From: Escherichia coli
Lineage (GTDB): Bacteria; Pseudomonadota; Gammaproteobacteria; Enterobacterales; Enterobacteriaceae
Direction: 5' to 3' (one strand)
Length of the DNA: 64,000 nucleotides
Assembly: GCF_017348835.2 (NCBI RefSeq)
Contig: NZ_CP071375.1
A program made the translations under genes and the position numbers. Shown here piece by piece: positions 41,780 through 42,010 of the stretch. Position 1 is the stretch's first letter. Every line of letters begins with the position of its first letter. The notes under the pieces were generated by a model. It was not told where the DNA came from, ran no database searches, and saw only the letters and a list, made by a program, of their open reading frames with translations.

Positions 41780-42010
41780 TGGTGGCGTCAAAATCGCTGA
41801 AGCGTTCCCCGAAGGCCGGGGCAGCCCACATGGATGTGGGCTGAGGGCGCGTCTTACAAGGACGTTTCCTCGCGCCCGACCCGGTAGCCGAAGGGGATAA
41901 GCTGAAGGTACCGCGCAGCGGCGATTTTGTTCGCCAGAGCCCGGGGGTGCAGGGGGAGGAGGCGATTGTCCTCCCCCTGCGCGCTCCTTGCGCCAGTGGC
42001 AATATGTGGC
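41780..42010. other. GC-rich palindrome-rich intergenic element of unknown identity
   Basis: Palindromes GCCCACAT-GG-ATGTGGGC and GGGGGAGGAGGCGATTGTCCTCCCCC in an otherwise AT-rich spacer; no REP or ERIC consensus; the 107 aa ORF over it is low-complexity. Confidence 0.4.

Follow-up and report, generated by a model that had tools for sequence, protein, structure and literature searches.

The genes yohP and dusC of Escherichia coli converge on a spacer of 387 bp, and in the stretch of contig NZ_CP071375.1 analysed here (64,000 nucleotides of assembly GCF_017348835.2, hereafter the window) this spacer contains a block rich in guanine and cytosine (GC). This block, as we have shown, represents a single copy of a non-coding repeat, approximately 265 nt long, found in intergenic regions of the Enterobacteriaceae. 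The GC content is 0.60-0.69 over 41750-41999, against 0.32-0.40 in the flanking spacer, and the block holds perfect inverted repeats of 10 nt (41822-41831/41834-41843, 100%) and 12 nt (41949-41960/41969-41980, 100%), an imperfect one of 16 nt (41789-41804/41914-41929, 81%) and a GGGCGCG/CGCGCCC pair at 41845-51/41871-77 that was spotted by eye. An earlier reading, made from the sequence alone (the sequence-only reading), had described a GC-rich block with strong palindromes in an AT-rich spacer, as the GC profile and the two perfect repeats bear out. It had placed the block at 41780-42010, which is right in position but slightly short: the profile of the repeat family extends over 41775-42040, and the shorter limits cut off the last conserved helix (41981-88/42023-30). 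Its view that the block lacks likeness to the REP and ERIC repeats of the window also held, as BLAST of the spacer against the whole window gave nothing significant. It had suggested folding both strands, and each proved more stable than dinucleotide shuffles (z = -4.6 and -4.95; 0/200 shuffles equal). The family profile finds no second match, so that the 64-kb window holds one copy only.

In the wider genus and family, copies of this repeat are widespread. The sequence-only reading had proposed a BLASTN search across E. coli and had offered three identities for the block: a structured RNA, a repeat family that it did not recognise, or the remains of a gene in decay. By megablast, all but one of the 5426 complete E. 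coli genomes (5425) matched a 271-nt segment, with a median of 3 and a maximum of 8-10 places per genome, and the second of these identities is thus correct. Copy number across E. coli genomes ranges from 1 to 10, and the usual loci are yohP-dusC, lysO-aqpZ and yegH-asmA. E. coli K-12 MG1655 has three copies (about 2229116-2229379, 915024-915288 and 2139502-2139660, with the sense on the -, + and + strand, respectively; two forward, one reverse): those at yohP-dusC and lysO-aqpZ are approximately 265 nt long and that at yegH-asmA is a 5'-truncated remnant of 159 nt. None of the three is annotated in NC_000913.3, and RefSeq annotates nothing at the element in the genomes listed. Related copies occur in Klebsiella and Citrobacter, including 13 places in one K. 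pneumoniae chromosome, and an exact-pattern scan of one genome per species gave 64 loci in Escherichia, Citrobacter, Klebsiella, Raoultella, Enterobacter, Pseudescherichia, Pseudocitrobacter and Kluyvera, with a few in metagenome-assembled genomes labelled otherwise. None of 50,697 phage records contains the element, viral contigs are essentially free of it and genuine plasmids lack it; the 'plasmid' matches are non-mobilizable records with chromosomal genes, several of them megabase-sized. The literature on RSA, BoxC and other repeats yielded copy numbers only, a literature search with the literal loop sequences matched no paper, and the yohP paper says nothing about the spacer.

The copies share a fold. 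Sixty-two of them, 59-100% identical, were aligned (alignment A1), and RNAalifold with RIBOSUM scoring gave a nested model of 12 helices and 71 pairs (Table 1); helix 11 is misaligned in one subfamily. Standard pairs are formed by 94% of the cells in A1, compared with 38-45% when partners are slid by 1-3 columns, and compensatory change is found in 31 of the 71 pairs, compared with 9-13 in the slid controls. The covariation score is 0.287 (0.05-0.08 after sliding), a value that none of 500 column shuffles reached, and the window copy satisfies 70 of the 71 consensus pairs. For example, compensatory change is seen at three pairs of the hairpin-1 stem, at three of the four pairs of hairpin 3 (CG to UA, GC to AU) and at five of the eight pairs of helix P5, where GCGCUCC/GGAGCGC alternates with CGUUCAC/GUGAACG and GCGCUCU/AGAGCGC; AAAAUCGC/GCGAUUUU is replaced by AAAAUUGC/GCAAUUUU in Citrobacter and by AACAUCGC/GCGAUGUU in Klebsiella. 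Citrobacter copies have GUAAAGGGCGU/ACGCCCUUUAC at the position of hairpin 4. By comparison, the hairpin-2 loop C-A-N-G-G-A-N-G is invariant in the 62 copies, at positions that the search pattern did not force. A lack of conservation was among the grounds on which the sequence-only reading would have dismissed the segment; instead, 62 copies hold a common 12-helix fold.

It is also clear which strand is constrained. An A·C cell on one strand is a G·U on the opposite strand, and in the 5' domain we counted 62 G·U cells, spread over 19 pair positions, but just 6 A·C cells, confined to 3. When the fold was instead predicted on the reverse complement of A1, as a control, 69 of the 71 pairs were recovered and the excess persisted on the shared pairs (79 G·U versus 30 A·C). 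Since the G·U excess is kept in this antisense-fold control, the constrained molecule is a single strand, the + sense in the window. We have therefore shown that the sequence is constrained by the 12-helix structure of one particular strand. This bias fits RNA, and single-stranded DNA is also compatible with it. With a fold that is conserved, covarying and strand-biased, the option of a structured RNA was well chosen.

The 5' two-thirds of the element are a diverged motif of the TwoAYGGAY type, in which long closing helices hold two hairpins with tips A-N-G-G-A-Y. In the Rfam scan that the sequence-only reading had recommended, TwoAYGGAY (RF01731) was the only family to align (model 1-168 to 41788-41927, 25.9 bits, E = 0.15), below its gathering threshold of 43 bits, and the other matches were chance ones to microRNAs and small nucleolar RNAs on the GC hairpin. 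The label 'unclassified' thus stands in that no Rfam family passes its threshold, but not in that the 5' domain is a sub-threshold relative of a known one. Under the same model the lysO-aqpZ copy scores 30.6 bits, a Pseudocitrobacter A-type copy 29.6 bits and the Pseudocitrobacter B-type partner copy (L019:2218-2281; L numbers are our locus labels) 49.2 bits, which exceeds the threshold. The family profile matches this B copy over its full length with E = 1.5e-16, and other B copies with values down to 6e-52, so that homology extends to an above-threshold TwoAYGGAY member. On the basis of the full-length Rfam alignment and this profile match, the sequence comparison identifies the window element as a sub-threshold homologue of TwoAYGGAY with an added conserved 3' domain. 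The hairpin-1 loop AUGGAU satisfies AYGGAY; the hairpin-2 loop is AAGGAC in the window, AGGGAY in most copies (a purine at position 2) and ACGGAC in some Klebsiella. As expected of the TwoAYGGAY closing stem, both hairpins lie within the helices P0, P1, P2 and P3, in which compensatory changes are seen.

TwoAYGGAY was described as two AYGGAY loops within an often very long P1 stem, from Clostridia, gamma-proteobacteria and the human gut, without consistent gene association, and was rated probably an RNA (Weinberg et al., 2010). The element resembles it in the long closing helix, in two adjacent hairpins with A-Y/N-G-G-A-Y loops, in conserved AG and CG linkers around hairpin 2, in lacking a fixed gene association and in being gamma-proteobacterial. 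However, the window copy is much richer in GC, its second loop is AAGGAC (family consensus AGGGAY), it has an extra conserved 3' domain of approximately 100 nt (the long GC hairpin and a closing helix around a variable hairpin), and units of the family occur solo or as head-to-head pairs of approximately 700 nt.

The nature of the two loops suggests a function. The CsrA consensus from in-vitro selection (SELEX) is RUACARGGAUGU, with ACA, GGA and GU conserved and GGA in a hexaloop closed by AC/GU, and a single CsrA dimer can bridge sites 10-63 nt apart (PMC7652899). Gardner and Eldai predicted that TwoAYGGAY binds CsrA (PMC4333381). In the element, hairpin 1 reads ACAUGGAUGU and hairpin 2 reads UACAAGGACGU in the window and UACAGGGAUGU in K-12; their GGA motifs are 28 nt apart, and that of loop 1 is kept in 21 of 21 B copies. 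Judged by sequence, both main hairpin loops fit the SELEX site and look like ideal candidate sites. We favour, at a probability of about 0.6, the reading that the element is an RNA module presenting a dual CsrA-type site on a rigid scaffold. The element most likely works as RNA. Because no intrinsic terminator was found between yohP and the element by consensus scan, nor a canonical one anywhere in the yohP-dusC spacer, we propose that in the orientation of the window it would be transcribed by read-through from yohP, as a 3' extension; in K-12-type strains, which have the element inverted, transcription would come from dusC instead. Together, the two GGA hairpins may then offer paired sites of high affinity to a dimer of the global regulator CsrA, or to a similar protein that reads loops, with the remaining fold as a putative rigid, nuclease-resistant scaffold.

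McaS is a small CsrA-binding RNA with two to four sites. The element is like CsrB, CsrC and McaS in carrying GGA in hairpin loops flanked by ACA and GU, and in having two sites within the span that one CsrA dimer can bridge. Unlike CsrB, which has about 18 loop GGAs, it has two or three; the unit contains GGA six times in all but only twice in a hairpin loop, short of the many loop or single-stranded GGAs typical of CsrB and CsrC. Unlike those two RNAs it is also multi-copy, occurs in either orientation and has no promoter or intrinsic terminator of its own that consensus scans could recognise.

Several points weigh against the proposed RNA role. The scans for consensus promoters and terminators, which covered four loci, gave nothing consistent: in E. 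coli and Citrobacter the unit matched neither a sigma-70 promoter nor an intrinsic terminator, and in Enterobacter there was no promoter match, and the terminator-like matches do not bound the unit. With respect to its neighbouring genes the element has no preferred orientation (in tandem contexts, 12 loci are in the same sense and 13 are antisense), which argues against a cis-acting element of untranslated regions, where bias would be expected. The G·T wobble is tolerated in single-stranded DNA too, so that the strand bias is no proof of RNA function, and a strand bias first counted for B-type copies (76 G·U versus 11 A·C) failed the antisense-fold control and was withdrawn. The collection pattern fixes CATGGATG, GGCT and AGGG, and the corresponding columns of A1 are invariant by construction. 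Furthermore, the hairpin-1 stem is long and GC-rich, whereas the SELEX ligands of CsrA favoured short stems (PMC7652899). Finally, a gene-level supplementary table for E. coli CsrA of Potts (2017) gives 'No' throughout its yes/no columns, and no significant effect, for dusC, asmA and ybjE, so that this table records no CsrA signal for the neighbouring genes; intergenic peaks may be listed elsewhere in that work. The Term-seq supplements covered here do not mention the neighbouring genes.

The genomic settings of the family bear on its mobility. By crude calling of open reading frames (ORFs), and with loci that are not independent, 23 of 50 loci lie between convergent gene ends and 2 of 50 in divergent promoter regions. 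Copies within one genome can be nearly identical, as in Enterobacter sp. ENT03 (seven copies) and K. pneumoniae ATCC 13883 (six copies). Escherichia and Klebsiella have solo A units. Head-to-head B-A pairs of approximately 700 nt are found in Citrobacter, Pseudescherichia, Enterobacter, Pseudocitrobacter and Kluyvera; the gap between their 5' ends does not exceed about 140 nt and is about 45-100 nt in the majority, no ORF lies between the halves, and their outer ends resemble terminal inverted repeats. In these composites (L004:2646-3248, L012:584-1168, L026:1857-2481, L019:1867-2430 and others) the spacer between B and A is AT-rich. In Citrobacter and Pseudescherichia, inverted sequences specific to each locus border the composites (in L004, GGGACAGC...GCTGTCCC), which suggests insertion into pre-existing hairpins or an outermost helix. 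At many Klebsiella loci (L002, L005, L036-L038, L041 and L053-L057) a REP-type palindrome (GCCGGGTGGCGGCTGCGCCTTACCCGGCCTAC) lies approximately 50-60 nt upstream of the unit, as does one at the E. coli yegH-asmA loci L020, L049 and L062 (GCCTGATAAGACGCG...CATCAGGC). From its strain-variable copy number, its separate lineage amplifications and its position at gene 3' ends, we infer that the family behaves like a tolerated dispersed repeat.

At two loci the element exists in both orientations. In K-12, the yohP-dusC unit of 272 bp is inverted and 88% identical between flanks that are 100% identical (window 41745-42050 versus L001:7107-7377), which puts the element's sense strand on the dusC strand in K-12-type strains. 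The window-type allele (O157:H7, ST131, O6:K2:H1) has a collinear match in 1998 of the 5426 genomes and the inverted, K-12-type allele (K-12, O145) in 3316. Among the genomes listed the alleles follow strain background, which indicates that this is not phase variation. The K-12 yohP allele is 94.9% identical to the lysO-aqpZ paralogue and 88.9% identical to the window allele, and as each allele is nearer to paralogues than to the other allele, a simple recent inversion in situ is disfavoured at yohP-dusC. At lysO-aqpZ, the unit of the divergent strain E69 is inverted relative to K-12 (L035:3881-4155 versus L072:4010-4284). Here an in-situ inversion is possible from the sequence, with the element 91.6% identical and the flanks 93-94%. 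At both loci the orientation alleles also differ in their adjoining spacers, with conserved coding flanks. If an ancestral head-to-head pair lost one half in some lineages and the other half in others, solo units of opposite orientation may have been left at the same site.

These features could instead describe a purely DNA-level mobile repeat, similar to miniature inverted-repeat transposable elements (MITEs) or REPINs, in which the fold would be the single-stranded DNA substrate of an unidentified transposase or recombinase and RNA incidental. The near-identical copies within the Enterobacter and K. pneumoniae genomes, the range of 1 to 10 copies in E. coli, the preference for convergent ends with avoidance of divergent promoter regions and no bias in orientation are all as expected of such a repeat, and so are the composites with ends like terminal inverted repeats (Citrobacter, Pseudescherichia, Enterobacter, Kluyvera), the opposite-orientation alleles at two loci, the closer relation of the K-12 yohP allele to its paralogue than to the window allele, and the lack of a consistent promoter or terminator for the unit. 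Of the hallmarks of MITEs, however, we found ends of this kind on the head-to-head composites only, and no target-site duplication, empty site or parent insertion sequence (IS); no protein-coding parent is apparent in the short, ORF-free interval between composite halves, and the phage records and genuine plasmids lack the element. A 12-helix junction with invariant GGA loops also exceeds what known transposases read, and the related TwoAYGGAY was rated probably RNA by Weinberg and colleagues. We regard a DNA-only repeat as somewhat unlikely. The element does share with REP/BIME, ERIC and REPIN sequences an extragenic, palindromic character, a location at gene 3' ends and strain-variable occupancy; like REP/BIME and ERIC it can be the target of specific insertion sequences, and its paired inverted arrangement recalls REPINs. 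Unlike REP (about 35 nt) and ERIC (127 nt), it has approximately 265 nt, 12 helices and about three copies per E. coli genome, and we know of no RAYT-type transposase associated with it. REP/BIME and ERIC (IRU) were rejected as identities for the element on this difference in length and copy number together with the BLAST result in the window. The BoxC/PIT triplex repeat was likewise rejected: it has approximately 56 bp, three purine/pyrimidine blocks and about 33 copies in K-12, compared with approximately 265 nt and about 3 copies here, and the hairpin-4 stem of K-12 (GGGGGCGGCGG) is not a BoxC triplex block.

A structural role without a specific protein would make the GC hairpins REP-like punctuation that stops or pauses transcription, or shields mRNA from 3' exonucleases, in either orientation. 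The very stable folding of both strands, the enrichment between convergent genes, the yohP-dusC spacer without a canonical terminator and the two orientation alleles, which an orientation-indifferent action would fit, are all in keeping with this. It leaves unexplained, however, the bias of G·U over A·C, the conserved and specific multi-helix architecture and the invariant hairpin-2 loop CA-N-GGA-N-G beside covarying stems, and at K-12 lysO-aqpZ a normal intrinsic terminator of aqpZ is visible in the sequence beside the element; we consider it very unlikely. RSA is a palindromic enterobacterial repeat of the older reviews, and if the element were this long-catalogued E. coli repeat it would already be known as a DNA repeat. 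The helix-closed 5' domain, at approximately 140-154 nt, is near the 150/151 bp given for RSA, which has 6 copies in K-12, 2 forward and 4 reverse (PMC5172473). Compared by catalogue description only, both are low-copy and intergenic with a domain of comparable length, but copy number and lengths do not agree: K-12-like genomes show 3 detectable places of approximately 265, 265 and 159 nt rather than 6, two forward and one reverse, the 159-nt copy is a 3' fragment without the 5' domain, and no RSA or other annotation stands at the three loci in NC_000913.3. Identity with RSA seems improbable. There remains the decayed protein-coding gene that had been offered as the third identity, of which an ATG-initiated ORF of 107 aa across the element (41739-42062, - strand) would be the remnant. 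The sequence-only reading had itself called this ORF an artefact, correctly: among the 62 copies the longest open frame switches strand and frame, and the 107-aa ORF has no NCBIfam match. These two results rule out the remnant for practical purposes; substitutions also follow base-pair compensation and not codon structure, and the lack of RefSeq annotation agrees.

Table 1. Coordinates of the repeat unit, its helices and neighbouring or inserted features (window positions unless a locus label is given).
Feature	Position	Strand	Remarks
yohP	41619-41702	+	Gene upstream of the element on the element's sense strand
5' leader common to Escherichia copies	41757-41782	+	..TTGCAAACAGCTCCGGTGTTGG; TTACAAACYGCACSGRTG at other loci
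Whole repeat unit, A-type copy	41775-42040	+	nhmmer with the family profile, score 243
5' domain, TwoAYGGAY-like	41783-41936	+	Closing helices P0, P1, P2, P2b, P3
P0	41783-87/41932-36	+	Consensus fold
P1	41789-96/41922-29	+	Consensus fold
P2	41797-803/41901-07	+	Consensus fold
P2b	41806-09/41894-97	+	Consensus fold
P3	41814-20/41880-89	+	Consensus fold
Hairpin 1	41822-41843	+	9-bp stem CAGCCCACA/TGTGGGCUG, tip ACA-U-GGA-U-GU, GGA 41832-41834
Hairpin 2	41845-41877	+	Stem GGGCGCG/CGCGCCC, tip UACAAGGACGU, GGA 41860-41862
Hairpin 3	41911-41921	+	CCGC-GCA-GCGG
Hairpin 4	41949-41980	+	Perfect 12-bp GC-rich stem GCAGGGGGAGGA/UCCUCCCCCUGC, 8-nt loop
P5 closing helix	41981-42030	+	GCGCUCCU 41981-88 with AGGAACGC 42023-30; encloses variable hairpin, 41989-42022
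dusC ORF	42090-43106	-	Stop at 42090; converges with yohP
IS110-family element, about 1.38 kb	L075:2793-4175 (strain 2D)		Homologous insertion at L076 about 1870-3252 (strain EC19)

The leader is defined from anchored upstream sequences and the comparison of K-12 with E69, conservation starting near 41757. No sigma-70 consensus promoter was found in it, and -10/-35 candidates picked by eye in the leader or the composite spacer were weak and not conserved, and were dropped. Three copies, in L013 (about 3325-3400), L062 (about 8634-8710) and the B copy of L045, have a 75-nt insertion inside the unit that forms an extra hairpin (CAGGGAUG loop, AAAAUUGCC...GCAAUUUU stem) and resembles a nested module or a duplicated one. 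An ORF of 27 aa (MMKLNKRF..., 42037-42120, +) begins at the 3' edge of the window element, after AAAGGAACGC, a 10-mer that also precedes the yohP start codon; the ORF is unconserved, as the K-12 allele stops after 3 codons, and the GGA before it that resembles a Shine-Dalgarno sequence is the 3' arm of P5. Upstream, mdtQ (39960-41485, -) is apparently split into two overlapping ORFs of 362 and 151 aa and looks like a frameshifted pseudogene, as annotated in K-12; in strain 2D, mdtQ is intact at 1437 nt.

The hairpin-2 loop is also the insertion point of an IS110-family element. Next to yohP in strain 2D come a transposase gene of this family and then lysO, not dusC (L075, NZ_CP059003.1 1519371-1524661). 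The insertion lies at profile position 91/92, equivalent to about 41858-41866 of the window, in a native target TTTTACAGGG-AT-GTTACC with AT present on both sides of the IS; the target flanks can be written TTTTACAGGG-AT-GTTACCTC. The half-elements on either side in strain 2D come from different paralogues, a yohP and lysO-aqpZ hybrid, which points to an inversion of about 1.3 Mb between these loci. A full-length match to this junction, with an identity of 99.4% or above, occurs in at least 60 genomes, among them SMS-3-5, IAI39 and CE10. In strain EC19 this IS occupies the identical position of a 70%-diverged yegH-asmA copy. With insertions at yohP, lysO and yegH-asmA, all three E. coli loci of the family have served as IS targets, and the relative orientation of the IS is always the same. 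Of the 5426 E. coli genomes, 179 carry the IS, with a median of 2 places each, and both element flanks were seen in all 60 matches listed. A guide-like match of 8 nt that the target flank shares with the non-coding 3' end of the IS was no better than chance (rough estimate, p about 0.1). The truncated yegH-asmA copy of K-12 (L073:3503-3661; NC_000913.3 about 2139502-2139660) keeps only profile positions 108-268; its break is just 3' of hairpin 2, near this insertion point, and other strains have the full unit there.

More speculatively, the family might constitute an unrecognised layer of the Csr network, made of portable dual-CsrA-site modules whose orientation decides which of two convergent mRNAs carries the module, and with an IS110-family RNA-guided transposase that homes to the protein-binding loop. 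We hold this wider scheme to be doubtful. If it were true, the module would be on the yohP mRNA in O157:H7 and ST131-type strains and on the dusC mRNA in K-12-type strains.

In summary, the window element appears to be a new form close to TwoAYGGAY, for which the structural and comparative basis is solid and the function is predicted. For E. coli K-12 this would mean three copies, all unannotated, of a structured element that is large, covarying and strand-specific. To our knowledge, TwoAYGGAY is an orphan motif with no demonstrated function, and a relative in the best available genetic system would make the published prediction of CsrA binding directly testable. The existence of two common alleles, with the element on opposite strands but between identical genes, amounts to a natural experiment. 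Furthermore, the fixed insertion point of the IS110-family element explains a megabase inversion in some strains, and would provide a defined natural target for studying RNA-guided insertion.

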